The position numbers were made by a program, and so were the translations under genes. The notes below the pieces were generated by a model. That model searched no databases. It saw only the letters and a list, made by a program, of their open reading frames with translations, and had not been told where the DNA came from. From an uncultured virus (IMG/VR IMGVR_UViG_3300020180_000001) (taxonomy: Duplodnaviria > Heunggongvirae > Uroviricota > Caudoviricetes), in IMG/VR virus record IMGVR_UViG_3300020180_000001: a stretch of 64,000 bases of DNA; one strand, written 5' to 3'. Position 1 is the first letter of the stretch. Every line of letters begins with the position of its first letter. Shown here one piece after another: positions 27,005-47,572 of the stretch.

Positions 27005-27628
27005 AAAATAGTAGCGAACATGGCTTCGCCACGCCAGAATTTAACGTCTAAATTTTACAGGAGAGGGCTACACTGTAAACACGACGGAGCAGTTTTGTTT
27101 TTAACCTATTTGGTGCCGAAGAAAGGACAATAAGTGTTGATTCATCAATAAGTTGATAAACCAACACGGAGCGTTTTAAAGACGAACTTATATACGCACG
27201 GACACAACTATACACATGATAACCCTCTTTTCGTTAGTATCTTACTATCACTATGGTAGTGACCGATTTTACACCATTACTTACCATTAATATTAGTTAA
27301 GAAGAGCGGTAATCTTCTAAAAACCGGGTTTAAAAAAACCCTCAGAACCAATATTAGAAAGTACAAGTATAAGGCGAAGAGGCATGTGTAACCTATTAGG
27401 GTTAAGGATTTCATCATTATGATTCAGCAATCGAACAAATTACTATTAAGTGATAAATCGACTTAATAGGTCACACTCTCTTCTTACCACCATAATAACT
27501 ACTGTATAGAAGAAAGGTCTCGACGTTCCGTAATGATTTGTAGCCGCCACCCTTAGAAATCCCTATCAACCCTCCTTTTCAGGAGAAAACTTCAGGGCTA
27601 AGGGCAGGAACTATAACTATCTCGAATC
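27005..27628 (-). ncRNA. Candidate large structured ncRNA, copy A
   Basis: No ORF of 60 aa or more; many stems with G-U wobbles and a GAAA loop on the minus strand; follows a TATCTTTG promoter; shares five ordered sequence blocks with 47010..47530. Confidence 0.6.
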
Positions 27629-27630
27629 CA

Positions 27631-27670
27631 GTACAAAGATACAACATTTAAAGTTCAAAACCTAATTTAT
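27631..27670 (-). promoter_or_regulatory. Bacteroidota sigma-A type promoter (-7 TAnnTTTG)
   Basis: TATCTTTG at 27641-27634; surrounding sequence nearly repeated at 47534-47572. Confidence 0.65.
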
Positions 27671-27694
27671 TTACCCCTTTAACATATCGTTAAC

Positions 27695-27945
27695 ATACAC
27701 CCTAAAAAAGCCTAAAAAATACACCCTAAAAAATATAACCCCCCCCCCAACCTTTATCATGCTCCCTAAATACATGGTCCCTAACCTTTATGACGGTCCT
27801 TAAGTACATACTTCACAAAAAATACACCGTAACTTTTAACACGGTCCTTAACCTTTATGACACCCCCTAAAAAATATAACCGTAACCTTTAGCATGGTCC
27901 TAAAAAAATATACCTCTAACTTTTACCATGCTCCCCAAGTACATA
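27695..27945. repeat. Degenerate C/A-rich direct repeats at the divergent junction
   Basis: Recurrent CCTAAAAAATA(T/C)A, TAACCTTTA/TAACTTTTA and CATG(G/C)TCC units. Confidence 0.65.
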
Positions 27946-28042
27946 CCCCCCTATCGTGATTGCTGACGCACATAGGGGGGACGTTGGTAAGGACTATATA
28001 ATACAATATTATATAGCCTTTAATCCCTTAACATTAAGACTC

Positions 28043-28561
28043 ATGAGTATATATGAAAAGGACTTGAGACAACTAAAGGCAGCCAATCAGGCGGCATTGG
28101 TATCTCCAGTCACATCATCCACGGGCAATTCTGTGCCTGTCGATGAGAGTACAAAGGCGCTCATTGAAGGCGCTGTATCGGTTAAATTAGTGGCTGTGGG
28201 GCCACTTAAAATAAGTCCCATATTGAAGGAAAATGCAGATAAAGTCCGGATTCCGACGGGCCTTAACACTGCAAAGTTTTCCTGCACATTGATAGCAAAT
28301 GGCTGTGCCTTTGCAATCAATCTCCATTCCGTGACTCTTTACGCGTTATTGCAAGGCGGTGCACAGTGCACCCTTGCGTTTTACGAAAACACTCTGACAA
28401 AGCCCGGGGGCTTTTGGTTAGGCATGACGTGTGCCGGACAGCCGGCCTCACTGTCAGGGCCGCAAATCGACGAAATGTCTGCCTTACTTGAGGCGTGGAC
28501 ACAGAAGAAAGAATCTGAAGTTGAAGTATTAGAGGTCGAACCGTTAGAAGTATCGGAATAA
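28043..28561 (+). CDS. Hypothetical protein, first gene of the rightward arm
   Basis: Start moved to MSIYEK at 28043; acidic C-terminus. Confidence 0.55.
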   Translation: MSIYEKDLRQLKAANQAALVSPVTSSTGNSVPVDESTKALIEGAVSVKLVAVGPLKISPILKENADKVRIPTGLNTAKFSCTLIANGCAFAINLHSVTLYALLQGGAQCTLAFYENTLTKPGGFWLGMTCAGQPASLSGPQIDEMSALLEAWTQKKESEVEVLEVEPLEVSE

Positions 28562-28673
28562 AACCCTTAAAAGAGAGAGGGACAGACAGCGCACCGTATC
28601 ACCATATTAGGTAAGATACAAAGCCTACCTGTGCCCTCTCTCATCTTAATTAAATTTAAATTAACAATAAAAA

Positions 28674-28856
28674 ATGATTGGTATTACTTTTAGCCAGTTA
28701 ATCCGCTTTATTGCGGGCTGGTTAGGTTTTTGGGGTTTGGTAGCCCTGATTACCTACCTGTTAGGGGGCGACCCCACACATCCCGCCGTGGGAGTCGTCT
28801 CATTCATCTTTGGAATTATTCCGGCCCTTGTTTTGGCCGGTGATGACGAAAAATAA
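28674..28856 (+). CDS. Small two-TM membrane protein
   Basis: Two hydrophobic helices; AT-rich leader. Confidence 0.55.
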   Translation: MIGITFSQLIRFIAGWLGFWGLVALITYLLGGDPTHPAVGVVSFIFGIIPALVLAGDDEK

Positions 28857-28863
28857 CACGGCT

Positions 28864-28892
28864 GCGTTCTCTTAATCGGGAACGCTTTTTTT
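28864..28892 (+). terminator. Rho-independent terminator
   Basis: GCGTTCTC-TTAATC-GGGAACGC followed by T7. Confidence 0.7.
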
Positions 28893-28897
28893 AGGCT

Positions 28898-29016
28898 TTT
28901 TTTATAGGCTTTTTAAAGCCGGTTTTATAGGGTTTTTTAACCCGGTTTTATAGGGTTTTTTAACCCGGTTTTATAGGGTTTTTTAACCCGGTTTTATTAT
29001 AGGCTTTTTAAAGCCG
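28898..29016. repeat. 23 bp tandem repeat (3 exact copies, 2 variant flanking copies), each with an internal hairpin
   Basis: GGTTTTATAGGGTTTTTTAACCC at 28921, 28944, 28967; flanks carry GGCTTTTTAAAGCC. Confidence 0.85.
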
Positions 29017-29049
29017 ATTTTTATAAGGGCGTTTAGACGACGCCAAATC

Positions 29050-29094
29050 ATCGTGGGGAAAGCCCAATAAGGTTCGCTACCTTAAACGATACCA
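29050..29094 (+). ncRNA. tRNA-like minihelix (T-arm, acceptor-like stem, ACCA end)
   Basis: ATCGT/ACGAT stem followed by ACCA; TAAGG-TTCGCTA-CCTTA T-arm. Confidence 0.45.
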
Positions 29095-29095
29095 G

Positions 29096-29121
29096 GACCA
29101 GGCAATTCCGCCTCGGTTCAA
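29096..29121 (+). promoter_or_regulatory. Conserved pre-gene hairpin motif, copy 1 of 7
   Basis: CCAGGCAATTCCGCCTCGGTTCAA upstream of 29149. Confidence 0.7.
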
Positions 29122-29148
29122 CTTTAAATTTTTAAAATATAAATAAGT

Positions 29149-29514
29149 ATGTCAAATATTGTAACGTTTGCCGAGCAAGTCAACGGCTATATCCAATTTA
29201 CCGTTCCTACCGGCTATTACGCCGGTGCTTCCCACTACGAGAATGATCAGACGGAGATCGTTTACATACCGAACTACATATCGGTCGGAAAAACCGTTGA
29301 AGAGTATATCACCATTAAACCGCTCAAGTCTGTGTGCAACTCACAACCCTACACAGACTCACACAACGCGTGCACGCGCGTTGACGTGCACTTGGCAAGA
29401 ATTGTTAATTCAGGCTGCCCGAAAGGGTGGTCGGTCGCAGAAATAGAGCATAAGCTCTACGGGGATGAGGTGTCTATGGAAGTGAAGGAGATCCTTTACA
29501 CGTGCCACTTTTGA
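29149..29514 (+). CDS. CPxGWS family paralogue 1
   Basis: NGYIQF...GYY...RVDVH...GCPKGWS...VKEILYT. Confidence 0.75.
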   Translation: MSNIVTFAEQVNGYIQFTVPTGYYAGASHYENDQTEIVYIPNYISVGKTVEEYITIKPLKSVCNSQPYTDSHNACTRVDVHLARIVNSGCPKGWSVAEIEHKLYGDEVSMEVKEILYTCHF

Positions 29515-29524
29515 AGTAAAAAAA

Positions 29525-29561
29525 GCATCCTCGTAGACTCAAATCTATGGGGATGTTTTTT
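29525..29561 (+). terminator. Terminator hairpin (repeated at 30451; degenerate at 31504)
   Basis: GCATCCTCGTAGA-CTCAAA-TCTATGGGGATGT followed by a T-tract. Confidence 0.75.
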
Positions 29562-29579
29562 AACCTCGTCACAACATTA

Positions 29580-29649
29580 ACACCTGAACAAGTGTATAAA
29601 CTGCTCAACCTTAACACCGTAACACCTGAACAAGTGTATAAACTGTTCA
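29580..29649 (+). ncRNA. Two tandem H-type pseudoknot motifs
   Basis: ACAC-C-TGAACA-A-GTGT-ATAAAC-TG(C/T)TCA at 29580-29607 and 29622-29649. Confidence 0.6.
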
Positions 29650-29654
29650 ACAAT

Positions 29655-29682
29655 AACTCGGGGCAATTCCGCCTCGGTTCAA
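29655..29682 (+). promoter_or_regulatory. Pre-gene hairpin motif, copy 2
   Basis: CTCGGGGCAATTCCGCCTCGGTTCAA, 18 nt before ATG 29701. Confidence 0.7.
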
Positions 29683-29700
29683 AATTAATTTTTAAATAAC

Positions 29701-30444
29701 ATGAACAATTTAATAGAATTCCAACAACAAGAAAACGGGTATATCGATTTTACCGTCGATCCTGCATACTATGGAACAGCAGCCTTACAACATGAGGCAC
29801 TGTATTATGCTGCAAACCCGATAGTGGGCGAGGAGCCACCCCTTAAAACGTGGGTAGCGCCCGACGTCAGAATAACAGAGACGCAGTTCGATGACACGAA
29901 CCACGCGGAGTGCCGCGTTGACGTGTATCCAAAAGAAGACGTAAAATCTGGCTGCCCTCCAGGGTGGTCTGTCGTTGTCATCGAGAGCAAGCAGTACGGG
30001 GATAAAGTGTATGACGAAGTCAAGGAGGTGTTGTACACGCATTTATTTGAAATGAAAGAGGGGGACGACCAGCCTCGAAAACTTAGAGTTTACGACAGTA
30101 TCACCGTCGACACAATGGAGACTGAAGAAGTCGCCCGTATTAGTGAGACGAAACAGGAACTTACGATCCAGGAGGCTTTCCTCCTATCGCTGTATTCCGA
30201 CGGATGCGTCCATGCGGCGGTCCACGAATTCGGGAAATTCCCAACATTTTTGTTAGGCAAAATAACCTCCTATACCGACCATGTGTTGTCTAACGACTTT
30301 TTAGTCGAAGACGAGGAGCAAACGCAGGAAAGGATTAATGCCGTCAACGCCGGAGCAGCACAGGCGGCTTCGGACTGGTCTGCTATGGCATACGCCGTGT
30401 TGGGAGAGGAGGACTTCCGGGGACTCTGCTATGAAATTAAGTAA
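29701..30444 (+). CDS. CPxGWS family paralogue 2
   Basis: NGYIDF...RVDVY...GCPPGWS...VKEVLYT; C-terminal LTIQEA domain. Confidence 0.75.
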   Translation: MNNLIEFQQQENGYIDFTVDPAYYGTAALQHEALYYAANPIVGEEPPLKTWVAPDVRITETQFDDTNHAECRVDVYPKEDVKSGCPPGWSVVVIESKQYGDKVYDEVKEVLYTHLFEMKEGDDQPRKLRVYDSITVDTMETEEVARISETKQELTIQEAFLLSLYSDGCVHAAVHEFGKFPTFLLGKITSYTDHVLSNDFLVEDEEQTQERINAVNAGAAQAASDWSAMAYAVLGEEDFRGLCYEIK

Positions 30445-30450
30445 GATAAA

Positions 30451-30490
30451 GTATCCTCGTAGACTTAGGTCTATGGGGATACTTTTTTTT
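30451..30490 (+). terminator. Terminator hairpin
   Basis: GTATCCTCGTAGAC-TTAG-GTCTATGGGGATAC followed by T8. Confidence 0.75.
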
Positions 30491-30497
30491 AAAATAG

Positions 30498-30525
30498 CCA
30501 CCTGAGCAAGTGTATAAACTGTTCA
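30498..30525 (+). ncRNA. Pseudoknot motif, copy 3
   Basis: CCAC-C-TGAGCA-A-GTGT-ATAAAC-TGTTCA. Confidence 0.6.
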
Positions 30526-30532
30526 ACCTTAA

Positions 30533-30558
30533 GCCACGGCAATTTCGCCTTGGTTCAA
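30533..30558 (+). promoter_or_regulatory. Pre-gene hairpin motif, copy 3
   Basis: GCCACGGCAATTTCGCCTTGGTTCAA. Confidence 0.7.
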
Positions 30559-30575
30559 AATTAATTTTTAAAAAA

Positions 30576-31514
30576 ATGGAAAAGGAAAAGGAAAAGGAAT
30601 TAATAACGTTCTACACACAGAAGAACGGGGTCATCGATTTTAAGGTAAGACGTGGCTACTATGCCGCTGCTTCCCTCAATGAAAATGATCAGAGCGAGAT
30701 AGTCTACGTGCCAAACGGCACACTCGTTGACCATGTGGCCGACGATTACATGACGATAGAACCGACGGCGACTAAATCACAAGAGTACACGAAGACACGC
30801 GTTGACGTGCACCGCAAAAGCACTGTAAAGGCAAACTGCCCGAAAGGGTGGTCGGCAGTATTGGTACAGCTTACGTGGTGTTACGGGGACGAATACGTCT
30901 CCATGAAAGTCAAAAGCGTACTTTTCACGCGCCCCTTTCAAATGAAAGAAGTGGCAGCATTCTTCCGCAAGGAAGGGATGTCTGCCAAAGAGGCTAAAGA
31001 ATTGTACGAGAAGGAAATGAATGTCATCAACATTCACCCGATGAGGGTGTTTGACGTACTTGAAGCATACGAAACAGTGTCCGCAGAACGGGCGATGAAT
31101 CAATATTTGACGTTTGAAGAGGCACTGTATGTGTCTCACGATCACTACACGCTGGTGTACTGCCAGCAACCCTTCCAATTCTTTGGTGCAGAAGATAGAT
31201 ACCCGGTCTTTTACCGGGGGGAACTTATCTGCACCGGAGAACTCCGGCAGAATGACAGTTTCCAGATTGTGCTTCCACCGCAGGAAAAGGTGGCTTTTGA
31301 ATGGTCTTCAGATGACCATAGGGTCGCAGTGCTTCAAATAACGGAGGAACAAATTAACGTGACCGATGACGAAGCCGGTGATGGCGATGAGGTCGCGTAC
31401 CTTCAAATAACGCAGGAAAGGAATGTGGCCAACGAAGCAGCCCAGGCTATGAACGAGGTTTACCTCCAATCGCACTATTTTGCTTGGTGTGCTGCAGGCG
31501 GTCTCGTAGACTGA
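30576..31514 (+). CDS. CPxGWS family paralogue 3
   Basis: Start moved to ATG 30576 (MEKEKE), after the motif; NCPKGWS; VYCQQPF...YPVF..GE. Confidence 0.75.
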   Translation: MEKEKEKELITFYTQKNGVIDFKVRRGYYAAASLNENDQSEIVYVPNGTLVDHVADDYMTIEPTATKSQEYTKTRVDVHRKSTVKANCPKGWSAVLVQLTWCYGDEYVSMKVKSVLFTRPFQMKEVAAFFRKEGMSAKEAKELYEKEMNVINIHPMRVFDVLEAYETVSAERAMNQYLTFEEALYVSHDHYTLVYCQQPFQFFGAEDRYPVFYRGELICTGELRQNDSFQIVLPPQEKVAFEWSSDDHRVAVLQITEEQINVTDDEAGDGDEVAYLQITQERNVANEAAQAMNEVYLQSHYFAWCAAGGLVD

Positions 31515-31549
31515 AGTCTATGGAAATGTTTTTTCTATACTGAATAGTA

Positions 31550-31573
31550 ACCCACGGCAATTACGCCTTGGGT
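31550..31573 (+). promoter_or_regulatory. Pre-gene hairpin motif, copy 4
   Basis: ACCCACGGCAATTACGCCTTGGGT. Confidence 0.7.
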
Positions 31574-31592
31574 AAAATTTAATTTTAACATA

Positions 31593-32288
31593 ATGCCAAA
31601 GACAGTAAAAAATGCAACCGCCACCCCATTTACCGTCAATCGTGGCTACTATGCCGTGGCGGCAGAAAATGAAGCAATCTATTACACTCCAAACCCGATA
31701 GTGGGCGAGGAGGCCGCACATAAGGTCTGGGTAGAACACGACCTCTCAATAGTAACAGAAGTGATTGGTGACGGCTATGACGCGGAGTGCCGAGTAAACG
31801 CGTATGAAAAAAAGTTCGTTAAGGCAAAGTGCCCGCAAGGGTGGTCGGCAGTTGTAATGCACGTCGAAGAGGTAGGAAATGATGTGATCGCCAAAGTGAA
31901 GCAGGTGTTGTACACCCGCCCATTACGGGTGGTGGATGACCTGGATATGCAGTGCCTAATTAGGTTCTTCCGCAGCGAGGGGATGTCCGTAAAGGTCGCG
32001 AACGCTACATTTCTTGAAGAACTGAAACACATATGCAAAACCCCGATGAGGGTGTTTGACGTATTCGAGTCGCATGAAAAGGTGCCCAAAGGACGGTGGA
32101 TGGATCCAAACCTATCAATACGGGAGGCACACTACGCGTCCCTGTGTCATAAACATCTGGTGTACTGCCAGGAACCATTTAGGTTCTTTTGGAAGACAGA
32201 ATACCCGGTCTTTTTCATGGGAGAGATCTTGCGCACCGTTGAACAACTCCGTCAGAATGACACGTTCAGAATTGCGCTGCCGCAATAA
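31593..32288 (+). CDS. CPxGWS family paralogue 4
   Basis: RGYYA...KCPQGWS...VKQVLYT; VYCQEPF...YPVFFMGE. Confidence 0.75.
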   Translation: MPKTVKNATATPFTVNRGYYAVAAENEAIYYTPNPIVGEEAAHKVWVEHDLSIVTEVIGDGYDAECRVNAYEKKFVKAKCPQGWSAVVMHVEEVGNDVIAKVKQVLYTRPLRVVDDLDMQCLIRFFRSEGMSVKVANATFLEELKHICKTPMRVFDVFESHEKVPKGRWMDPNLSIREAHYASLCHKHLVYCQEPFRFFWKTEYPVFFMGEILRTVEQLRQNDTFRIALPQ

Positions 32289-32311
32289 CCCACGGTAATA
32301 CCGCCTTGGGT
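32288..32311 (+). promoter_or_regulatory. Pre-gene hairpin motif, copy 5
   Basis: ACCCACGGTAATACCGCCTTGGGT. Confidence 0.7.
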
Positions 32312-32332
32312 AAAATATTAAAATAGTAAAGC

Positions 32333-32959
32333 ATGAAAAAGAATTCGTTGTACATAACGTATGGGGTCACACAACTACTGTACGTGCGGGTAAAGGATCA
32401 AATTATATGCAACGAGCCAATACCCGTACAAGCCTCTTGCATGACCCTCGAGCAGGGTTGCGACAACAAGAGGATACGAACGTACGATAAGAAGAAGGTT
32501 GTTGCAGGATGCCCAAAAGAATGGTCCGTGGCACTATGCCTGTGGATAGGACCCGGGACCTCCTGCGACATAATAGAAATCCTGCACAAGCCTGCAGAGA
32601 CGTTGGCAGAGATGCCTATGCAGTACATCCGAAGGTTCCTCACAAAAAGGCCCAACATGTCTGCGGCGAAACAAAATCAACTGTTTCGTAAAGAGGTCAA
32701 ATACCTGTCCGCCTTCAAAGTACGCATATTAGAAATTGTAGGCTCCGACGAGGAACTGACTATTGCCCGGGAGGTGATAAAACTCACCATTGAGGAGGCA
32801 TGCAACGTGTCCATGACATCTGACATGCTGGTGTATTCCTCCCAAGCATTTAAGATGTTTGGAACGGAGGCGGCAAGATATCCCGTCTTTCGTGGAGGGG
32901 AGATTCAATACCTGAGTAGTCGCGACAGGCCCAATCCCTTCGACGTTGTAATGGTGTAA
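32333..32959 (+). CDS. CPxGWS family paralogue 5
   Basis: GCPKEWSVALC; PMQYIRRF; LTIEEA; YPVFRGGEI. Confidence 0.75.
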   Translation: MKKNSLYITYGVTQLLYVRVKDQIICNEPIPVQASCMTLEQGCDNKRIRTYDKKKVVAGCPKEWSVALCLWIGPGTSCDIIEILHKPAETLAEMPMQYIRRFLTKRPNMSAAKQNQLFRKEVKYLSAFKVRILEIVGSDEELTIAREVIKLTIEEACNVSMTSDMLVYSSQAFKMFGTEAARYPVFRGGEIQYLSSRDRPNPFDVVMV

Positions 32960-32976
32960 TTATATAAGATTAAAGC

Positions 32977-33003
32977 GGCCACGGCAATTCCGCCTTGGTT
33001 CAA
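32977..33003 (+). promoter_or_regulatory. Pre-gene hairpin motif, copy 6
   Basis: GGCCACGGCAATTCCGCCTTGGTTCAA. Confidence 0.7.
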
Positions 33004-33021
33004 ATTTAAAAATTTTAAAAC

Positions 33022-33729
33022 ATGAAACGAATAGTAAAATTCTACGAGCAGGAAGAGGGGTATATCGATTTTGATACCCCCCGCAAGTACTATGTCGAAG
33101 TCACAACCGGAATAGCAGATAAGAAGGGAGACGTCCTGCTATTGTACGTCCTTGGGGGTGATATAGGGAGTGAAGTAAAAATGTGTACCCTCGTGGGCCA
33201 ACCCGTACATACGGCGATGAATGAGCAATCTTACGGGCATGAAAAATGCTGGGTAAGATTATTTCTTCATGAGAAGGCCGGGATACATAAGTACTGCCCT
33301 GAAGGATGGTCCGTGGCGCTGTGCCGGTGGAGGATCTCTCGAAACATAAAAGATCTGCAGATAACTCGGATCTTGTACGAGAAGAAAGTACCGCTAAGGA
33401 AACTGCCAATGCAGTACATCCGAAAGTACTTCGCTGAACGTACCTGGCTGCCCTCAAGCGATATACATGATTACTTCCGTAGGGAGGTCAAATTATTGAC
33501 GGGCCAACCCGTACGTTCATTAAGGATTTGCAACGAGGGATCGGACAAGATAGAACTGTCTATCCAGGAGGCGTACAACCTATCCTTGCAAACCCCGGAG
33601 CATGTACACTCTTCCCAAGGATTCTCCACCTTTTTTTCGGGCGAGGGAAACTACCCCACTTTTCAACAAGGGGAGATTATCTTTTTGGGGGTCGAACAGA
33701 GAAACGTTTTTAACGTGGAAATAATATGA
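33022..33729 (+). CDS. CPxGWS family paralogue 6
   Basis: EGYIDF; YCPEGWSVALCRW; PMQYIRKY; LSIQEA; YPTFQQGEI. Confidence 0.75.
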   Translation: MKRIVKFYEQEEGYIDFDTPRKYYVEVTTGIADKKGDVLLLYVLGGDIGSEVKMCTLVGQPVHTAMNEQSYGHEKCWVRLFLHEKAGIHKYCPEGWSVALCRWRISRNIKDLQITRILYEKKVPLRKLPMQYIRKYFAERTWLPSSDIHDYFRREVKLLTGQPVRSLRICNEGSDKIELSIQEAYNLSLQTPEHVHSSQGFSTFFSGEGNYPTFQQGEIIFLGVEQRNVFNVEII

Positions 33730-34145
33730 AGAAGAAGCAACGAAGGATCAAATTTTTACCTCTCGTCAATGGGATTATTGAAGTTGAGGTAAATACGGAG
33801 GAATACTACTACTCCACGGTGTCAGGAACGGGAATCGTTACTGAACATCATGAAATATTCTATCTCCCAACAGGGGTAGTTTCTGAGGAGGATGTAGCGA
33901 AGTATTTAAAGGCAGTTGAACCATCCGAGGTAAGGACTAAGCGCCAAAATTACAAAGGTGTTAAGTACTCCGTCAAAGTTAGCCTATTCCCGAAAAAGGA
34001 TGTTGAGGCAAACTGCCCGCAAGGTCACGAAATAGTACTCTGCCGATGGGAAATTAATGGTGGTTACTACGAAGTCCTCAGAATTTTATACACGAAGAAT
34101 GGCAATAATGCCAAAATAAAAATAAAACAAAATACTTATGTTTAA
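33726..34145 (+). CDS. CPxGWS family paralogue 7 (N-terminal domain only)
   Basis: NGIIE; NCPQGHEIVLCRW; RILYT; ATGA overlap with the previous gene. Confidence 0.7.
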   Translation: MKKKQRRIKFLPLVNGIIEVEVNTEEYYYSTVSGTGIVTEHHEIFYLPTGVVSEEDVAKYLKAVEPSEVRTKRQNYKGVKYSVKVSLFPKKDVEANCPQGHEIVLCRWEINGGYYEVLRILYTKNGNNAKIKIKQNTYV

Positions 34146-34377
34146 AATAACTTTATTCCTTATACTATCGCAAGGGATTACCGACCAGCATGGTAACAAC
34201 TTGTCGATGAGAGACAACGTAGTCATCTTCACCCCCAAAGTGGGCGAAGCGATGTACCTTCCCAATCCCCAAGGGGTAAGTTACTTCGACGGAAGTTGGG
34301 GAGTGTTTATAAGATCTTCAACACCCTTCGTCCATATCGACGGGGCTGGAATTTATGCAGTATCGGGTCAAAAGTGA
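34138..34377 (+). CDS. Hypothetical protein
   Basis: ORF track; overlaps the previous gene's stop. Confidence 0.45.
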   Translation: MFKITLFLILSQGITDQHGNNLSMRDNVVIFTPKVGEAMYLPNPQGVSYFDGSWGVFIRSSTPFVHIDGAGIYAVSGQK

Positions 34378-34424
34378 TCTGGAATTTATACATTATCGGA
34401 TCAAAAGTGATCTGGTAATAATTA

Positions 34425-34688
34425 AGCGGGCGTTTAGTACCTTTCCCAGTCGTAAGATTGGGAAGGGTTTTTATACCTCGAGAAGAGGTAGTATCTGCCT
34501 GGTGGCTACGATGGGTTCGATTCCCATAGATGCACGATAATATAGTGCCGGCCATGCTACTCATCCCTATCAAAAGAGATGGGGAGAGTAATTGCAAAAT
34601 GGATAGGCGATCTCCTCATGGTCGGGATCGGCCTATCCAACCTTTTAAGCCCCTAATGGTAAGACAAGTTCGACTCTTGTAAGGGGTA
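34425..34688 (+). ncRNA. Structured RNA cluster containing two truncated tRNA-like T-arm elements
   Basis: GTAA-loop hairpin ~34440-34466; GTATCT..ATGGG-TTCGATT-CCCAT-AGATGC (34491-34534); GCCCCT..ACAAG-TTCGACT-CTTGT.AGGGGT (34649-34688); further long stems between them. Confidence 0.55.
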
Positions 34689-34691
34689 CTT

Positions 34692-34718: not shown

Positions 34719-34734
34719 ATTAATTTTTAAAAAA

Positions 34735-39809: not shown

Positions 39810-39818
39810 TAAAAAAAA

Positions 39819-40754
39819 ATGCTTAAAATCACGAATTTCGTAGAACTGGTGACCTTGCCGGATCAAGTCATTGTCATACCAGTTAGCCCTGTACCTGCCT
39901 CCTTACTGCCGCCTTTGGATAATCTCATTAAGTTCACGGTAGCAGGTAATACAGATGTAATCTCACTATCAACTGCGGCTGAAGCGGCTGAGTGGCTATT
40001 GAAAAATCCGAAGTATTTCGGGCAGATGGAAGGTACCGCAAGCAGCGTAAAAACGATGCTGCACACTTATGCGACAAATTTGAGTGTAAACGCCACAGCG
40101 GCGTTTGATGAAATCTGCGACTGGATTATCGCAATGGAAAACAAGTATGTGTATCCTAATCTCATTATGGAAGCGTTGAATAATGCTGAGAACCGTGAAT
40201 CCGCGCTCCTATTCTTAGATGAGGTTGAAGGGAAGACGGAAGAGGCTGTTTTGAAACTCTTCCAGACGCTGGCCGAACTTACGAACTATGTAGTTGCAGA
40301 AGTTGTAGCGACTCCAGAAGCTGTTGCAGAAGCACCAGCAGAAGTTGTAGTGATTGCGGAAGTTGTAGCGACTCCAGAAGCACCAGTAGAAGTTCCAGCG
40401 ATTCCGGAAGTTGTAGTGATTGCACAAGTTGATGCAGTGACTGCACAAGTTGTTGCAGAAGTTGTTGCAGAAGTTGTAGTGATTGCAGAAGCAGAAGTTG
40501 TTGCAGAAGCACCATCGATTGAAACACTGCCCGTGGCCGTACCCGTAATAACCTCAGTGGCCGCAACGAAGAGAGATGCGTTAGTTGTAGCGACCGGTAT
40601 TCTTAAGGCCCTTGAGACGGCACACGTTGCGCTGGCAGAAGCGGTGGGTGGAGTCAGGGATTTCTTAGAAACGATTAATGGTATTGAAGAAACCATCGTC
40701 GTAGAAAACGATGATGCAGAAACGATACTGGTAGAACCCATCGTCGTAAAATAA
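39819..40754 (+). CDS. Acidic protein with AEVV low-complexity repeats
   Basis: GCAGAAGTTGT-type repeats ~40290-40515. Confidence 0.65.
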   Translation: MLKITNFVELVTLPDQVIVIPVSPVPASLLPPLDNLIKFTVAGNTDVISLSTAAEAAEWLLKNPKYFGQMEGTASSVKTMLHTYATNLSVNATAAFDEICDWIIAMENKYVYPNLIMEALNNAENRESALLFLDEVEGKTEEAVLKLFQTLAELTNYVVAEVVATPEAVAEAPAEVVVIAEVVATPEAPVEVPAIPEVVVIAQVDAVTAQVVAEVVAEVVVIAEAEVVAEAPSIETLPVAVPVITSVAATKRDALVVATGILKALETAHVALAEAVGGVRDFLETINGIEETIVVENDDAETILVEPIVVK

Positions 40755-40808
40755 ACCGTGAAAAACCAGATGAAAACTTTTTTTTCACTATTAAAAATTT
40801 TTAGTTTT

Positions 40809-41531
40809 ATGGAAGTAAAAGGAAGATTAAAACAAGGTGAGAAACCTGGTGCTGGATCAATATACGGGATAGTTACCGTATTGATCGATGGTAGGCAGGT
40901 CAAAGTCAACGTGACGATGTCTGACAATATTAGGAATGCCTTAGAAAAATTTAAGGTGACCGACTACTGTTTTAGAACAATCCTGGACCCAGCAAAGGTC
41001 ACTGTGAAAAATACCTACGCGGCAACGGAAAAGACCATCGTGGCCCCGATTTTCCATGTCGATACTGGGCAAGATGAGACGATTGTATGGAAAGGTCAAC
41101 GGTTGATACCGAGTCACGAGAGTTCGGTTTTCTTCTCGTTTCTGCAAGGGCCTAAGCAATTAGCCACCAGAGTGCCTATGGGCGTGAGATTTTTAGGGGT
41201 CAATGGCATAACCCCCAAGTCATGGTTAAATGCCATGCTCGAACAACTCAAGTTGCAGATCGATGCTGACGCGAAGCAAAATCAGTTTCGTGATCCGGAT
41301 AATCGGTTCCCTCTTTTCAATTTGACGCAATACTATACCGACGGATTTGCATGCGCGAAGTACCCCGAAGATAGGGCATTAATCACTTCCCTCATCCGTG
41401 CTGCTCAGGAGATGGAAACCGTTTTCAATTTCCCTAAGCAGCAGTACCCGAACGTTGTATCCCTGCCGCAAGGGTTAAATGACCCGTGGAATTTCAGAAG
41501 TAAGATAGAAGTAATAGACGTACTTGACTAA
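40809..41531 (+). CDS. Hypothetical protein
   Basis: ORF 40758..41531; likely start MEVKGR. Confidence 0.55.
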   Translation: MEVKGRLKQGEKPGAGSIYGIVTVLIDGRQVKVNVTMSDNIRNALEKFKVTDYCFRTILDPAKVTVKNTYAATEKTIVAPIFHVDTGQDETIVWKGQRLIPSHESSVFFSFLQGPKQLATRVPMGVRFLGVNGITPKSWLNAMLEQLKLQIDADAKQNQFRDPDNRFPLFNLTQYYTDGFACAKYPEDRALITSLIRAAQEMETVFNFPKQQYPNVVSLPQGLNDPWNFRSKIEVIDVLD

Positions 41532-41533
41532 TA

Positions 41534-41568
41534 ATGACGGGCAGGGCTAAGGTCCTGCTCGTTATTTT
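41534..41568 (+). terminator. Rho-independent terminator
   Basis: GACGGGCAGGGC-TAAG-GTCCTGCTCGTT-ATTTT. Confidence 0.6.
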
Positions 41569-41582
41569 ACAAACTGCCAAGA

Positions 41583-41924
41583 ATGGAAGGAATAATAACA
41601 AAGTTAGAACCGTTAACCGTGTATGCTAAAAATACCTATGTAACCACGGTAGATATTATTGACTTTATTCCCGAATTGGGAGATATTGTCACAATTGAAG
41701 TCGTGGTTAGTTCCATATGGAAAATGGACTTATTACGCAGGTCTTTTGATTCTATAATACGAAGTATGATAGAGAATGCAACTAATGCTCCTAAAATTAA
41801 AATAATGCCGTTATCAGAATACATCATTAAACTATACAATTTTGAGACTCTACCTAATGTTGATTTATTCGGATCTTGTTATATCCAGGGCGAGTTATGT
41901 CTGATTTACGTACCCTCGGAGTAA
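41583..41924 (+). CDS. Hypothetical protein
   Basis: ORF track. Confidence 0.5.
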   Translation: MEGIITKLEPLTVYAKNTYVTTVDIIDFIPELGDIVTIEVVVSSIWKMDLLRRSFDSIIRSMIENATNAPKIKIMPLSEYIIKLYNFETLPNVDLFGSCYIQGELCLIYVPSE

Positions 41925-42466
41925 TTATACTCCTCATTTGGGTTTGTAACAACTGCCCCGTAGAAATATCGGAAGAGTTTAGTATATTAAGATCTGTCTA
42001 TACGCCCTTATTAGACAATGCGGCTTCTATTGATATCGATACTGTTCCAAAACTTTCCATAAAGAGTTACGTAGACACTTATAAAGAACTTGCTATTACA
42101 GAAGGAGAGTTGTACAATATTCCCTGGAAGATAATCTTAGGGCAGGCAATAATAGAATCCGATATAGGACGAAGTTATCTTGCTAAACAGGCTAACAATC
42201 ACTTTGGAATGAAGTGTTTTTCCAAGACATGTGCTAAGGGTCATTGTATCAACCGACAAGATGATACTCATAAAGATTTCTTCTTGTGCTTCGCAACGGT
42301 GAAAGATTCTTATAGACAACACTCTATACTGCTGATGAAGAAAAGATACCGAAAACTAAGGGGAGTTAAAGATTTTAAGGAATACGCAATAGGACTTCAA
42401 GAATGTGGTTATGCCACAGATCGGTCCTACGCATCAAAATTAACAAAAATATGTCTGTTGCTTTAA
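41897..42466 (+). CDS. Second GH73 glucosaminidase with N-terminal hydrophobic segment
   Basis: IPWKIILGQAIIES, NNHFGMKC, GYATDRSYA. Confidence 0.88.
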   Translation: MSDLRTLGVIILLIWVCNNCPVEISEEFSILRSVYTPLLDNAASIDIDTVPKLSIKSYVDTYKELAITEGELYNIPWKIILGQAIIESDIGRSYLAKQANNHFGMKCFSKTCAKGHCINRQDDTHKDFFLCFATVKDSYRQHSILLMKKRYRKLRGVKDFKEYAIGLQECGYATDRSYASKLTKICLLL

Positions 42467-43806
42467 CTATGCTCATAGCAGTGCTAATTATATTCGTTGT
42501 GGTGACCTTGTGGTTGCACAGAGTAGAGACTGCAAGAAGTAAAAGGGAGGAAGAAAACCTAAAAACCGTTGGAAAGTTAGAGGTAAGTATGCAAATACTT
42601 GCAGATGCTTCTACCCTTAGTGAGGATGAGAAGTCACGGCCATCTAAAGGCTTTAGCCAATTATCAATAGATGGAGTATTTCTGTATGCGTTTGTAATGC
42701 AGCAGATTAAAACAGAATATGATGACATAGTGGCCAAAACGCAAGTAGTAGATATTGCTACCGGGCTGTGCCAGAGTATCACGTACTGTATCACTTATAT
42801 CGAGAATATTATAGAAGTAACTTTTGTCCTGCAGAACTACAGCAAGACTCAACTGGAACTGTGGTTCGATATCAGTGAAGACATGCGAGTTTGGGTAGAA
42901 GATACTACGTCGATAATATCGTCGGTGCAAGTCTGCACTCCCATCTATTGCAACGAAGCCTGTATCTTGCAAGTTGCTGCCGAGTTGAAAAACATCTTTA
43001 AGGTGAGTAGAGTGAATTACAAGGCACGCGTGCCGGAAGCATCGACTCGTTCAGTATATACTCTGACACGAATCCAAGGTAATCTCGAAGTGATACCGAC
43101 CCTATTAACAGGGCTCGTGTATGACAAGGAAACTGTAGATATGTACTACAAGCCCCCCACAGTACATGTAGGCAACGATCTCTACTACCCTCCTATGAGT
43201 AAGATAGTAGATTTACTGGCTGGTATAGGCTTCCGGGGAAGGAGCGCCATCATTACAGGTATGACCGGGGTTGGAAAATCAACCATATTAAAGTATGTGA
43301 TCCATGAAACGGACAGGTTCATATTGCAACTGACTATTGAAGATTTAGGTATAATGGCTACTCCGGAGGGTAAGGGGGTAATATTGAACTTCCTTGCATC
43401 ATATAAAGACGTAATCTTGATAATAGACGAGGCGCAAGGCTTAGTTGACGACTCCAAGTTTGTAGCAATCCTCGAGTTGATGGATGGGATTGCCAAAGCA
43501 ACCTGTCCAGACATAACGGTGATTTTGGCACTAAATACGAAGGTTGAGTCGCTTAACCCGACGCTGTCGAGGGCAGGACGAACGACCTGTATAATAGATG
43601 TAGTGCCTCAAAATGAAGCAGGGGCAGCAAATATTGCGGCGCTCGCTTCAAAAAAAGGAAATTTGTTTCAAGATGCAAAGTTGAAGGGTTTCCTACAACA
43701 ACCCACATTAGGCGAGGTTACTCTTGCAGAAATAATTGAGTGCATCATAGTTCCCGAGGACGATCCTTTGGCTGCTATAAGAACGTATAAACTTGACACG
43801 CTTTGA
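42451..43806 (+). CDS. Membrane-anchored AAA+ ATPase
   Basis: N-terminal TM, GMTGVGKS, IIDEAQ, LELMDG, LSRAGR. Confidence 0.75.
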   Translation: MSVALTMLIAVLIIFVVVTLWLHRVETARSKREEENLKTVGKLEVSMQILADASTLSEDEKSRPSKGFSQLSIDGVFLYAFVMQQIKTEYDDIVAKTQVVDIATGLCQSITYCITYIENIIEVTFVLQNYSKTQLELWFDISEDMRVWVEDTTSIISSVQVCTPIYCNEACILQVAAELKNIFKVSRVNYKARVPEASTRSVYTLTRIQGNLEVIPTLLTGLVYDKETVDMYYKPPTVHVGNDLYYPPMSKIVDLLAGIGFRGRSAIITGMTGVGKSTILKYVIHETDRFILQLTIEDLGIMATPEGKGVILNFLASYKDVILIIDEAQGLVDDSKFVAILELMDGIAKATCPDITVILALNTKVESLNPTLSRAGRTTCIIDVVPQNEAGAANIAALASKKGNLFQDAKLKGFLQQPTLGEVTLAEIIECIIVPEDDPLAAIRTYKLDTL

Positions 43807-44149
43807 AGTAGGAAAAAAGGTACAACTTAGAGTACCCTTCACTATTTTAAGTATAGAGAGCGCTTATGTAAATGTCCACACTGAATTGGGGGAGTTCATC
43901 TTACCTAAAGACCTCGCTGTTTTACAGTGCGCTAAAGTAGGTGATGTTTTTGATGGGAGTTGTATATCAGCAGTCTTGACAATCCTCTTTGCAGCGTATC
44001 CCATCGATTCATCGCACAAAATCGTAATTCTAAATAATTACGGGTGCCGTGTAGACAGACCTCGACTGAGTACTACGATTTTGTACTTGGGTTTAGTATT
44101 AATAGATAAAGTAGAATTTATGGTAAACTTAAAAAACTATGAAGTGTAA
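43793..44149 (+). CDS. Hypothetical protein
   Basis: ORF track. Confidence 0.45.
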   Translation: MTRFEVGKKVQLRVPFTILSIESAYVNVHTELGEFILPKDLAVLQCAKVGDVFDGSCISAVLTILFAAYPIDSSHKIVILNNYGCRVDRPRLSTTILYLGLVLIDKVEFMVNLKNYEV

Positions 44150-44675
44150 AATCCCCAAAAGAAATTTGTTAGGGGTGATAGAGTATTATGAAAAAGAATT
44201 TATCACTCCATATATTATAGATCGTGCTTTCGAGTTGTATGGGCGGGAAACTACAGCCGTAGTATATGATAACTTCGTTATAAAAAACCTAAGGATGAGA
44301 TATCTAAATCAAGTACTCAAAGACTTAGATTCTAATAAAGAGGAATTAATAATGAAGACCTGGTATTTCGACTTTGGTTTTTACGATAATGCGACTTCCG
44401 AATCTTGTATCAAAGGATACCTGACTCCTTACCAATTATTCGAGGCTCTTACGAGTCCTGCTATAATAGACAGTCCTCTCTACAACTTACTGACTCCCTT
44501 AGATTTGGAGTCATTAAAACAAGACTGCCCAATACAAGGCTGGAAAAAAGGACAAATAAAAGAATTTATCGAGAGATGTGTCTTTTCACTACCGGTACCT
44601 ATTACAATAACCCAAAATAGAATCTCAACGAGATTTTATTATACAAACTTAATAAAAGAATGTATAAATTTATAG
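44139..44675 (+). CDS. Hypothetical protein
   Basis: ORF track. Confidence 0.5.
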   Translation: MKCKIPKRNLLGVIEYYEKEFITPYIIDRAFELYGRETTAVVYDNFVIKNLRMRYLNQVLKDLDSNKEELIMKTWYFDFGFYDNATSESCIKGYLTPYQLFEALTSPAIIDSPLYNLLTPLDLESLKQDCPIQGWKKGQIKEFIERCVFSLPVPITITQNRISTRFYYTNLIKECINL

Positions 44676-45115
44676 TACTGCTACTACTGACATCCTGTGG
44701 TCAGGAAGTACCTGATGCTCATACGATAAAAGTAATGGATTCTATTCTCCAAAATGTCAATGTGAAGCAGCCTACGTATTCATTTTATTCAGAAAATAAT
44801 AAAATCTACGGGGGTAATCTTCAATACATACTGACGGATAGTACGGTAACTTTTACAAGTCCTGTAGTAGTAGTGTATAAGATTGATGGAAATAATCTAT
44901 ATCGCTCCATCAACAGTATCTCAAATCCGATACTGGAAGTATTACCATATCGAATTACTGACGAGTATTTTAAAATCGGACAAAGAGTATACTATAAACA
45001 TATTCCAACAAGCCGAGTATATACAATAAAAAAAGGAGACACAGAGGCCTCCTTAAAAACAAACTATGATGTCGAAATTGAAAACCCGAAAGCGGGACAC
45101 ACATTTACTTACTGA
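44660..45115 (+). CDS. Lipoprotein with C-terminal LysM-like motif
   Basis: Lipobox LLLTSC; YTIKKGDTEASL. Confidence 0.6.
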   Translation: MYKFIVLLLLTSCGQEVPDAHTIKVMDSILQNVNVKQPTYSFYSENNKIYGGNLQYILTDSTVTFTSPVVVVYKIDGNNLYRSINSISNPILEVLPYRITDEYFKIGQRVYYKHIPTSRVYTIKKGDTEASLKTNYDVEIENPKAGHTFTY

Positions 45116-45356
45116 AGAGTTCCAATTCTCTTTAGAAAGAGTGAATACTGTTATCCAAGAGCCTGATGAAATCTCCCGAAAAGTTAAATTCCGAATTAAT
45201 GCTTCAGAAGATAATAAGAACAAGGTAGCAAGAATGAAGGTACTAAAGAAAAAACTGGCAATATGGGAAGTTAAAGACACTATCGATGCAGAGATTGCGG
45301 AAGTAAACAAAGGTAAGATACAGAATCTTAAAAACCGACTGTCTAAACTAAAATGA
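45066..45356 (+). CDS. Hypothetical coiled-coil protein
   Basis: ORF track. Confidence 0.4.
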   Translation: MMSKLKTRKRDTHLLTEEFQFSLERVNTVIQEPDEISRKVKFRINASEDNKNKVARMKVLKKKLAIWEVKDTIDAEIAEVNKGKIQNLKNRLSKLK

Positions 45357-45706
45357 TCTTTTATCAACAGGAACATTTAGATTTTAAATGTATTAATTTT
45401 GCATTTCCTATAAGGCTGGAACTACATCGGATTTACAATAAAGAATTTGGAAAGTCTTATATCCATATTTTAAGAGGTATGGCCACTATTTTTCAATTTA
45501 CCATAGTCATTACTTTGGTAAAAGATATGTATAAGTGTACTTATGAATTTTACACTATAATTAAAGACCCTCACCATCAGGTAGTACATAATTTGCTAAG
45601 TACGGTAACAACGATTGGAGCAACCCTCCGTAAAGTATTTGACCAAGTAGTAATTTTATTTATTACAATTTTTAAGAATTTAATAAAATTAGGTTCAACT
45701 AAATAA
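45353..45706 (+). CDS. Hypothetical protein
   Basis: ORF track. Confidence 0.4.
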   Translation: MIFYQQEHLDFKCINFAFPIRLELHRIYNKEFGKSYIHILRGMATIFQFTIVITLVKDMYKCTYEFYTIIKDPHHQVVHNLLSTVTTIGATLRKVFDQVVILFITIFKNLIKLGSTK

Positions 45707-45712
45707 CTCGTC

Positions 45713-46282
45713 GTGAATATAGGAATAATATTGTTAGACCCCATTTCCCAAGAACGCATATATCGAGTCCATCTTGAGGAGCTGTTGCTCATCCTCACTA
45801 CAAATGAGAATGTAATAAGCCTCATAGAACCCTGGAAACTACCCGAAGATTACCCCGATGTAGATGTTATCATAATCCCGGACACCTTAGGTCTGAGTCT
45901 TGATAGAGCAATGCCCAATGTGTCATTTCTACCTTCTATAGCCACCCATGCGCAAACGCCGGGGAGGTTCTTTAGAGATTATATGCCATTATGGATAAAT
46001 TCTAAAAAGAGGCTCATAACTATTGGAAACTCATCCTTTGAACTTTACCAATTCTTAGGAGGAAAATTCGAGTATAGCGAGGGTAGCGTGTGGTTAGTAT
46101 ATAATACCGACTTTAATTTTGAGTACCCAGTAAAATCTAAAGTCCCGCTTAATAACTTGATATTCGAGTTTTTCGCTTTCTCTCACCATAATGTAAGCGG
46201 AGTATCAAATATCCCACAGTCTGGGGATCCACTGAGTTTAAACGATCTTCTGCATGGAACTGAAGAACTGACGGAACTATAG
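45713..46282 (+). CDS. Hypothetical protein, weak class I glutamine amidotransferase-like pattern
   Basis: DVDVIIIP; LITIGNSSFELYQFLGGK resembles LGICRG.QL....GG but lacks the catalytic Cys. Confidence 0.35.
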   Translation: MNIGIILLDPISQERIYRVHLEELLLILTTNENVISLIEPWKLPEDYPDVDVIIIPDTLGLSLDRAMPNVSFLPSIATHAQTPGRFFRDYMPLWINSKKRLITIGNSSFELYQFLGGKFEYSEGSVWLVYNTDFNFEYPVKSKVPLNNLIFEFFAFSHHNVSGVSNIPQSGDPLSLNDLLHGTEELTEL

Positions 46283-46574
46283 ACCTAACGCACAATCAGA
46301 TACTCATCTGTAGTAGAAAAGTATTTAGTAAGCCTCTCGGGTGCGTCCCGGAGAGCCCAAAAATATACTATACTATGGGTGAGTATTCTGTTTTACTAAT
46401 AGTGCTGTAGAATCTCTGTAGAGGCCTCTAATTTGCCTTCTAAGAGACTTTCTTATTTAACTAACCCGAATACTAAGGGGTAGAAATAATAATCTCTTAG
46501 AAGGAAGATATAAGATAATTATCGAAGGGAGGGATTAAGCAGGAAGCGGGCTTGTCGAAGAGTAAGTATAGAAT

Positions 46575-46955
46575 AATTCACTTAGGAAGGTAATTACAAC
46601 TCTATTAACAGAAGTAATTAAAGAATACTTACCTTAGGAAGGTAAAGAAAACTACCCTTAGGAAGGTAAAAATACCTCCCTAAGGTAATGCACCGCCTTT
46701 AAAAAAGGGAAAAATATAATGCTATAAGGAGGGTAATTGGCGGCCTTTAAAAAAGGGAAAAATAGAATGCTATGAGGAAGAATAAGGACAATCCCCCTTA
46801 AAAGGGAAAAATAGAATGCTATAAGGAAGCAAAATTCCCCTTTTTTTAAAGTAAAGAATGCTATAAAGACTAACGCTCCCCCTTTTTTTTAAAGTAAAGA
46901 ATGCTATAAGGAGGATTAACCCTCCCCCTTAACAGGGAAAAATAGAATATTCTTA
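46575..46955. repeat. Iteron-like direct repeats (putative replication origin)
   Basis: CTTAGGAAGGTAA three times (~46580-46670); about 6 copies of CC(C/T)TT..AAAG..AAA.AATGCTATAAG at 42-49 bp spacing. Confidence 0.7.
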
Positions 46956-47009
46956 AGAAGACTTTTGAGCCCTTTTTTTTATAAGTAGTAAATAGGTTCA
47001 GTAGTAGAT

Positions 47010-47530
47010 ACTTCTCCCCCTACCCAATTAAATGGGCTCAACGGGCAGACTTTTCAGCTACACGCCCTCGACGACCAGCCAAGGATTACCAAATTACCTG
47101 TTAAAGTAAGTTGGCTGTTTTTAAAGCGAACTGTTCGCCATCTATCAGTGTTTCTCAGTATATCGAGATGCCTCATTGACATAACACCTTCTCTTGGGAG
47201 AGAAGGGGACCTTTTCTGCTAAAAGATCTGGAAAACTCGTTAGTGACTTTCTAATGGAGGTTGTTGCCAGTGGCTACAAGATACTCATCACTACTCCCCT
47301 TGTTCCTACGATCAGCCCCACGGGCCTACGCTTGCCGTTTCTTTATCCCTAATTAAAGTTAGAGATATCACGGCTATGTCAATTCAATAGATGCTTATTG
47401 GAACGCCAATTTGTTGCCTCGAGGAGAAAATAGACGAATCCTCGGTCTTTTCCCGCGCTACTCTCTGTTTACGATGGTGCTAAGGGACGAATTACGATAT
47501 GGAACGATACCGCAGGCTATGCTCTGTGCA
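47010..47530 (-). ncRNA. Candidate large structured ncRNA, copy B
   Basis: No minus-strand ORF of 60 aa or more; more GC-rich than its flanks; many stems; paralogous blocks shared with 27005..27628. Confidence 0.6.
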
Positions 47531-47533
47531 ATG

Positions 47534-47572
47534 GTACAAAGATACAACATTAAAACGTTCAAACCTAATGAT
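47534..47572 (-). promoter_or_regulatory. Bacteroidota sigma-A type promoter (-7 TAnnTTTG)
   Basis: TATCTTTG at 47544-47537; plus-strand GTACAAAGATACAACATT identical to 27631. Confidence 0.65.

Follow-up and report, generated by a model that had tools for sequence, protein, structure and literature searches.

Two non-coding stretches behind a duplicated Bacteroidota-type promoter in an environmental crAss-like phage

Long untranslated transcription units behind host-type promoters are a known, if poorly understood, feature of crAss-like phages, and questions of interest in these phages are the timing of late gene expression and the start sites of replication. In the Cellulophaga crAss-like phage phi14:2, a preprint describes a pair of long stretches between genes (g004-g005, g005-g006) whose transcript levels exceed those of most genes from the earliest time point on and remain high, and it leaves their function open (10.1101/2020.03.07.982082, Drobysheva et al.). 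Two stretches that appear to belong to this kind are considered here. They lie in the IMG/VR record IMGVR_UViG_3300020180_000001, with a source contig of about 95 kb, of which 64,000 nt were analysed (the window; positions are those of this full stretch). Region A (27005..27630, minus strand) comprises about 620 nt of untranslated sequence between a promoter and the first open reading frame (ORF) of the late operon, and region B (47010..47533, minus strand) comprises 524 nt of non-coding sequence with no gene downstream on its strand. The reading that we favour, with moderate confidence, is that the two loci share only a duplicated Bacteroidota-type promoter, A being the leader of the late operon and B an orphan cis-acting unit at an iteron-like repeat array.

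The window has PHROG matches for a major head protein, portal, large terminase (TerL), GroEL-like chaperonin, family-A DNA polymerase, helicases and primase, and the nearest named relatives of its head protein are Flavobacterium phage FpV4 (30% identity), Bacteroides crAss-like phages and Cellulophaga phages; on these grounds the window is read as an environmental crAss-like phage. Its likeness to phi14:2 is that of a crAss-like phage of a Bacteroidota host with two non-coding regions of about 600-700 nt, the transcription of A and B, the ends of their RNAs and all of their functions being read here from sequence alone. Unlike A and B, the phi14:2 regions stand side by side in the replication-side module and not at the late operon. 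Moreover, the second phi14:2 RNA (g005-g006; L046, NC_021806, 4031-4502, plus strand) matches tmRNA just below the gathering score (46 bits where 47 is required, E 2.6e-16), whereas the window is without tmRNA, ARAGORN having found no tRNA or tmRNA gene in it. The first phi14:2 intergenic RNA follows a TACCTTTG motif of the TAnnTTTG type, matches nothing in Rfam at E<=0.1 and, by BLAST, resembles neither A nor B; an apparent common motif, CTAA..AAGAGGGT, was seen beside this BLAST result.

At the late promoter pR' of phage lambda, a terminated 6S leader is made and Q antitermination comes before the late genes. Region A resembles this arrangement in having a strong host-type promoter and, immediately ahead of the late structural operon, an untranslated leader that contains terminator-like hairpins. 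It differs in being three times as long, in a terminator hairpin that 98%-identical relatives do not conserve and in that no Q-like factor or binding element was identified, and the comparison of A with the pR' leader serves as a working analogy. For region B, the relevant systems are the transcript-dependent origins, namely ColE1 RNA II and the origin promoters of phages T4 and T7. The likeness here is a host-type promoter that would fire a non-coding transcript of about 500 nt toward repeats beside replication genes, and the B transcript would carry G-runs across those repeats; the difference is that the window has no skew signal, and the resemblance of B to an origin is at most conjectural. 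Both stretches are similar to ROOL, GOLLD, OLE and HEARO in size class and phage association and differ from them in having no Rfam match. A full-text literature search returned no paper on crAss-like replication origins with intergenic regions or on Crassvirales long non-coding RNAs, and a literature listing on crAssphage structured RNA and covariation held nothing on point. What is new is an identical promoter followed by several hundred untranslated bases at the late-operon head of five crAss-like genomes, with contents that are not homologous, together with a lineage in which this late promoter appears to have been copied to an orphan non-coding unit of unusual conservation that adjoins a repeat array and replication genes.

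The window contains exactly two copies of the 18-mer AATGTTGTATCTTTGTAC, which lie on the minus strand at 27631-27648 and 47534-47551. No further site in the window has three or fewer mismatches, and two matches were obtained in none of 100 shuffles. Between the ungapped 36-mers at 27631-27666 and 47534-47569, 31 of the 36 positions are identical, and a weaker similarity (ATATGTTAAA) extends upstream to about -60. Promoters of the Bacteroidota primary sigma factor are characterised, in the Bacteroides and Flavobacterium promoter literature, by a TTTG/TTG element at -33 and a TAnnTTTG element at -7. Promoter copy A (27631..27666, minus strand) has TTTG at 27656-27659, a 14-nt spacer and the -7 element TATCTTTG at 27634-27641, with a predicted start near 27629. 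Promoter copy B (47534..47569, minus strand) has TTTG at 47560-47563, a 15-nt spacer and TATCTTTG at 47537-47544, and its sequence is unchanged in the related loci L039 and L040. Among the sites listed, no intergenic one in the window besides these two copies combines TTTG with TAnnTTTG. The exact 18-mer is also present in 30 IMG/VR stretches, which represent 20 distinct downstream contexts, and most of the 30 sites carry TTTG/TTG at the -33 place. An ATG ORF of at least 50 aa begins within 60 nt of the 18-mer in half of the contexts (10 of 20), and in 8 of the 20 the first ORF of at least 50 aa is at least 300 nt away or absent. The initial annotation of this DNA had reported the same promoter-like sequence of host type at both loci, and this holds: the duplicated 18-mer is unique, both elements are present in each copy and the 18-mer precedes ORFs in other Bacteroidota-type phage contigs, so that the assignment of both copies to predicted promoters of the Bacteroidota primary-sigma type is supported. 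As far as can be judged by comparison of the two loci, they share just this duplicated promoter region of about 36-70 nt.

The 18-mer is followed by 300-600 nt of non-coding sequence also in the IMG/VR stretches L024, L035 and L038, whose downstream sequence is identical, and in L014 and L037; none of these non-coding stretches has an Rfam match at gathering score. Downstream non-coding stretches are partly homologous among L014, L020, L034 and L037, and in L024 a G+C-rich stretch of about 340 nt is followed by a second promoter.

The initial annotation went on to describe A and B as two paralogous RNAs with a conserved core, on the strength of five blocks shared in the same order. The blocks are present and their order is kept (minus strand; b1 at A 27607-15 and B 47501-09, b2 at A 27597-604 and B 47479-86, b3 at A 27542-50 and B 47314-21, b4 at A 27174-88 and B 47119-32, b5 at A 27067-85 and B 47057-75), and blocks 4 and 5 have no other occurrence on the minus strand of the window. 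It is the similarity itself that does not rise above shuffles or natural segments. The best BLAST match between the two bodies has an E of 0.35. When long gaps were made cheap in local alignment, z against dinucleotide shuffles ranged from -0.6 to 1.5 over the five scoring schemes used, and between 108 of 289 and 268 of 290 natural window segments, depending on the scheme, scored at least as well against A as B does. The best collinear chain of exact seeds between A and B was equalled by 6-19 of 200 shuffles and by 21-54 of 200 natural segments, and the block match is not significant against shuffled controls.

Covariance models were built from the 3' 140 nt of B with blocks 4-5 (R1) and from its 5' 240 nt with blocks 1-3 (R2) and were run with filters off. 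They recover B at 179 and 306 bits, respectively, and, being effectively single-sequence models of limited power, they have no match to the corresponding blocks of A at E<=10, which speaks against a conserved core; the sole match of either model inside A, obtained with R2, is a generic 26-nt hairpin (27137-27162, E 1.4). Block 4 of A is interrupted in L002, a relative of 98% identity, by an insertion of palindromic hairpin elements. The helices of GTTCC with GGAAC that had been proposed for both copies are isolated 5-bp pairings, used neither by the minimum free energy (MFE) folds nor by the centroid folds of A and B. The relatives that could be compared are near-identical, namely L039 and L040 for B (2 substitutions) and L002 and L004 for the 3' part of A. 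By these comparisons the transcribed bodies of A and B appear unrelated, and they probably do different jobs. Short ordered blocks between two 500-nt stretches can convince by eye and yet stay at chance level.

Both intergenic stretches are non-coding, as had been proposed, and the ORF and read-through scans agree on this. The longest ORFs are 55 aa in A and 42 aa in B on the minus strand, and no stop-free frame spans A or B with TGA, TAG or TAA read through; the longest stop-free runs reach 97 codons in A and, on the plus strand with TAA read, 141 codons in B, whereas coding controls reach 240-242. Stop-codon reassignment as a form of hidden coding finds no support, as no frame opens in either stretch. 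Two small ORFs were seen, encoding a 46-aa hydrophobic peptide in A (27277-27417, minus strand) and 42 aa in B (47054-47182, minus strand), where one of the two substitutions of B in L040 would be synonymous; these may be chance ORFs in T-rich sequence.

Rfam covariance models gave no match at gathering score over the whole window, whether for the families that the initial annotation had wished to see checked (ROOL, GOLLD, OLE, introns, RNase P and tmRNA) or for self-cleaving ribozymes and riboswitches, and local scans of A and B at E<=10 returned only chance-level matches of 11-21 bits to unrelated eukaryotic families. Neither A nor B had a blastn match among 50,697 phage records. Six-frame tblastn of both against 360 kb of fetched phage loci gave a single match (E 0.21) and no pseudogene signal, and when A and B were compared with the full window for trans-pairing, only the palindromic hairpin element described below was significant. 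The MFE z of A is -4.7 on the minus strand (20 shuffles) and -2.7 on the plus strand, and that of B is -2.6 on the minus strand (100 shuffles) and -0.3 on the plus strand. Among 18 coding segments of the same phage, with a mean of -1.55, a standard deviation of 1.54 and a minimum of -5.75, one lies at or below the value for A and three lie at or below that for B.

Region A is read as the 5' leader, or leader RNA, of the late structural operon (3..26971, minus strand), which starts with small ORFs from 26971 and continues with the GroEL-like chaperonin (24176-25696, minus strand), TerL (22012-24186, minus strand), portal and major head protein. It holds three terminator-like hairpin/U-run elements. 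The hairpin at the 3' end of A (27011..27032, minus strand) has 8 bp followed by UAUUUUUAUA, stands 40 nt before the first ATG and is terminator- or attenuator-like. Further inside A are a 15-bp hairpin (27134..27167, minus strand), the stem base of which is kept in L002 with a shortened tip, and a palindromic hairpin element, GGGTTTTTTTAAACCC (27326..27341, minus strand), which belongs to one type with the 23-bp units repeated in tandem at 28900-28997. Only 34-40 nt separate the 3' hairpin from the first ATG at 26971 and no second promoter lies between, so the late operon seems to depend on read-through, and this dependence would make A its leader. Host RNA polymerase would start near 27629 at promoter A and would cross the 620-nt leader with its three hairpin/U-run elements before reaching the first ATG. 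On this model the operon of small genes, chaperonin, TerL, portal and capsid would have A as its long untranslated leader, which may be released as a leader RNA, and the hairpin/U-run elements may serve attenuation, processing or timing.

Seven loci anchored on the chaperonin were compared and none spans the whole of A: the sequences of L002 and L004 break off within A and those of L003 and L005 do not reach it; in the nearest record, G001, the 3' part of A alone is covered. In L006, a relative of 40% identity, genes occupy the place of A. Compared with L002, A has 5 differences in 247 aligned nt and a further 33 unaligned nt, a conservation no better than that of neighbouring genes, and A tolerates indels among close relatives. 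Two adjacent substitutions weaken its 3' hairpin in L002, and a 9-nt insertion displaces the U-run in L004. At 28884-29021 the window has terminator-like palindromic hairpins of 23 bp arranged in tandem (GGGTTTTTTAACCC + GGTTTTATAG), with one copy in A (27326-27341), and extra copies are inserted in the A of L002 (about 130-190), which suggests that the palindromic hairpin is a small spreading element.

The position of A is syntenic in other crAss-like genomes. Five records with the 18-mer (G002-G006) were searched for TerL, which is present in four of them, with 53% identity in G006 and about 29-30% in G002, G003 and G004; G005, estimated to be 46% complete, gave no TerL match. In these four genomes the 18-mer lies 6-8 kb upstream of TerL on the same strand, and same-strand ORFs run unbroken from the promoter via a chaperonin homologue of about 500 aa (26% identity, E 2e-37) into TerL. 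The non-coding gap after the promoter is about 405 nt in G006, 463 nt in G002, 548 nt in G003 and 312 nt in G004. With the window, five genomes have an identical promoter core and a long untranslated stretch heading the late operon. BLAST of A against the leader stretches of the other 18-mer genomes found nothing, and their contents are not homologous. Upstream of promoter A the window has a repeat-rich divergent region (27707..27934) with 34-bp repeats and a G10 run, and in the same place G006 (L049 4940-5180) was seen to have G-runs, a (TA)n tract, repeats and a second promoter copy 300 nt upstream.

A different non-coding RNA, of about 200 nt, fills this slot in two of the genomes. The family was found in 10 IMG/VR contigs (L058-L067), including the ~100-kb contigs G002 and G003, in which it heads the chaperonin-TerL operon (L056 9183-9386, minus strand, for G002; L055 10409-10610, minus strand, for G003). 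It lies behind a TGTATCTTTGTA-type promoter and has an intrinsic terminator at its end, followed by a second TAnnTTTG promoter. Double changes affect 11 of its 54 predicted pairs, compared with 5.0+-1.4 in shuffles (0 of 500 reaching the observed count) and 1 in slid controls, the structure having been derived from the same alignment. There is no Rfam match to the family at E<=0.1. A covariance model built from nine members (R3) scores its training relatives at 208-227 bits, and its best match in the window is 13.2 bits (E 0.32) at 62916, with none in A, B or the G006 leader. The family is similar to A in its promoter core and, in G002 and G003, in its slot at the head of the operon of small genes, chaperonin and TerL. 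It differs in being shorter, in its clear terminator and second promoter and in its support from covariation, and R3 misses A and B.

Region B occupies a different position. Plus-strand genes (27956-46282) lie between A and a 1.43-kb non-coding region (46283-47714) that contains the repeat array and B, and the replication module begins at 47715 and continues onward. No minus-strand genes lie between B and the convergent gene ending at 46282, and transcription from promoter B would enter the repeat array, running against the operon that ends there. No terminator-like site follows promoter B before 46809/46685, inside the repeats. The iteron-like array itself (46560..46960) consists of six AGAATGCTATAAGG-type units at a spacing of 42-49 bp together with CTTAGGAAGGTAA in 3-4 copies, among which there is a 13-bp inverted pair.

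With the 308-aa protein, the first gene product of the replication module, as anchor, a metagenome scan yielded seven loci (L039-L045). Of these, only L039 and L040 contain B; their identity to the window is about 97.3% over up to 12 kb. No relatives emerged from IMG/VR scans in which the 308-aa protein or the DNA polymerase served as query. The conservation of B is that seen in one relative lineage (L039/L040). Compared with L040, B has 2 substitutions in 524 nt, at 47402 and 47069, where the median is 12 per 524-nt window. It is the lowest of 22 non-overlapping windows in the 12-kb comparison, and two or fewer differences occur in 3.2% of sliding windows. Its divergence of 0.38% compares with 1.73% at third codon positions (Fisher p 0.019) and 2.76% at all coding positions (p 1.2e-4), and the repeat array is more variable, with 93.7% identity in 46602-46851. 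Both substitutions fit the predicted fold, one being in a hairpin loop and the other changing G-U to A-U, two events that prove nothing about structure.

From its sequence and position B appears to be a lineage-specific orphan unit. The copied promoter would drive a conserved non-coding transcript of 520 nt toward the iteron-like array, just upstream of the replication module, and this transcript, or the act of transcribing it, may act in cis on the array, either in origin activation or priming or in insulation from the convergent operon. We infer such a cis role in preference to that of a trans-acting, ribozyme-like structured RNA. Both A and B offer concrete places for RNA-seq and origin mapping in cultured relatives, and the orphan B is the one most worth an experiment.

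Several observations weigh against the reading of A as a leader and B as a cis-acting unit. A look-up of sequencing runs for 46283-47714 returned none from RNA. The 3' hairpin and U-run of A are not intact in L002 and L004, which argues against a fixed terminator and not against a leader, and the G006 leader has an MFE z of -0.17, no better than shuffles, so a structured leader is not general. The folding of B lies within the coding background, and GC skew shows no origin signal at B. In G006 the surroundings of the DNA polymerase gene show no B-like gap, and neither does the sequence ahead of the 308-aa homologues in L041-L045, which is coding instead; B is therefore not a conserved crAss-like feature. 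A recent recombination tract is a live alternative for its conservation, as the windows with two or fewer differences span about 46824-47631 and include part of the repeats and the promoter. Taken further, this leads to the proposal that B is in itself without function: the late promoter would have been copied to a place beside the array, with spacer or decayed DNA behind it, and the near-identity with L040 would be due to recent recombination. That B is known only from the window and the close relatives L039 and L040, that the tract of low divergence extends past it on both sides and that its folding energy is not unusual would all suit such an origin. We nonetheless regard it as quite improbable, given that no sign of a pseudogene emerged from the six-frame search of 360 kb of phage DNA, that a strong consensus promoter directed against a convergent operon would be costly if useless, that the minus strand of B folds 2.3 z-units better than the plus strand and that the flanking repeats and the 308-aa gene diverge by 4-7% where B diverges by 0.4%.

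Alternatively, A and B could be discrete, abundant, trans-acting long non-coding RNAs, unrelated to each other and made by the host polymerase throughout infection, with a role as sponge, decoy or regulator. The phi14:2 intergenic RNAs would be a precedent, related phages hold a covariation-supported RNA with its own terminator in the slot of A, and A ends in a hairpin and U-run, with B strongly conserved. This seems unlikely, however, as the short distance without a second promoter from the 3' hairpin of A to the first late gene points to a read-through leader, B reaches the repeats before any terminator-like site, neither stretch has significant complementarity to the rest of the window and the folding energy of B is ordinary. 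Very improbable, in our view, is the original proposal that A and B are paralogues within an undescribed family of large structured RNAs whose core is conserved and whose periphery varies, with long-range GTTCC/GGAAC and GGCT/AGC pairings. In its favour are the equal order of the five blocks, two of which are found nowhere else on the window minus strand, and the better folding of both minus strands than of their complements in the absence of any Rfam match; it is opposed by alignment and chain scores at the level of chance, by B domain models that find in A only the 26-nt hairpin, by the splitting of block 4 in L002, by closing helices that the MFE and centroid folds leave out and by the sharply different conservation of A and B. 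A bolder extension of the leader and cis-unit reading, which we consider rather improbable as a whole, is that crAss-like phages keep a non-coding RNA slot behind a near-invariant host-type promoter at the head of the late operon, filled with unrelated RNAs (A here, the 200-nt RNA elsewhere) that would be made from entry and would gate late expression, and that the same promoter, copied in this lineage, drives a 520-nt RNA into the iteron array as a transcript-activated or RNA-primed origin. If true, this would be the first origin mechanism proposed for Crassvirales.

The gene for the 308-aa protein (47715..48641, plus strand) is divergent from promoter B. The structural model of this protein has a low overall confidence (mean predicted local distance difference test score, pLDDT, 48.6), with a moderately confident N-terminal part of about 110 residues that is predicted to be winged-helix-like, the remainder of the model being unreliable. 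Structural matches were obtained for this domain only and all are to winged-helix proteins, with a best Z of 8.9 and many MarR/PadR/HxlR regulators at Z 6-7; matches in the range of Z 6-8.9 possibly reflect just a common arrangement. The protein is 87% identical to the L040 version at about 95% DNA identity, and the chaperonin has 99% protein identity to that of L002. Over 37602-49528, a comparison of 14 ORFs with L040 gave 99, 106 and 54 substitutions at codon positions 1, 2 and 3, so that amino-acid-changing differences are in excess in accessory and early genes, unlike in the chaperonin. In L043, a related metagenome contig of 108 kb, a Hatchet ribozyme (85 bits, 9669-9752, plus strand) lies directly upstream of a short homologue of the 308-aa protein, and the same contig holds a tmRNA (13958-14286, plus strand) and five tRNAs (14416-19187).

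Among the plus-strand genes of the window, a tandem array of paralogous genes at 29097-35500 has each gene behind a repeated intergenic element of about 42 nt (GGCAATTCCGCCTTGGTTCAAA...), with repeated hairpins within, and a 550-nt segment of this array has the folding z of -5.75 that is the lowest of the background set. G006, the closest complete-ish relative, has 5-6 in-frame TGA codons in TerL and one in the DNA polymerase (L049 11422-13779; contig 24216-26012) and appears to read TGA as sense; the genes of the window are intact under the standard code. Finally, a hairpin core of about 100 nt in the first phi14:2 intergenic RNA (L046 3256-3364) recurs with about 75% identity in the unrelated Cellulophaga phages phi4:1 and phi17:2, the site of recurrence being 1501-1600 in both L047 and L048, within an unannotated gap of 143 nt.

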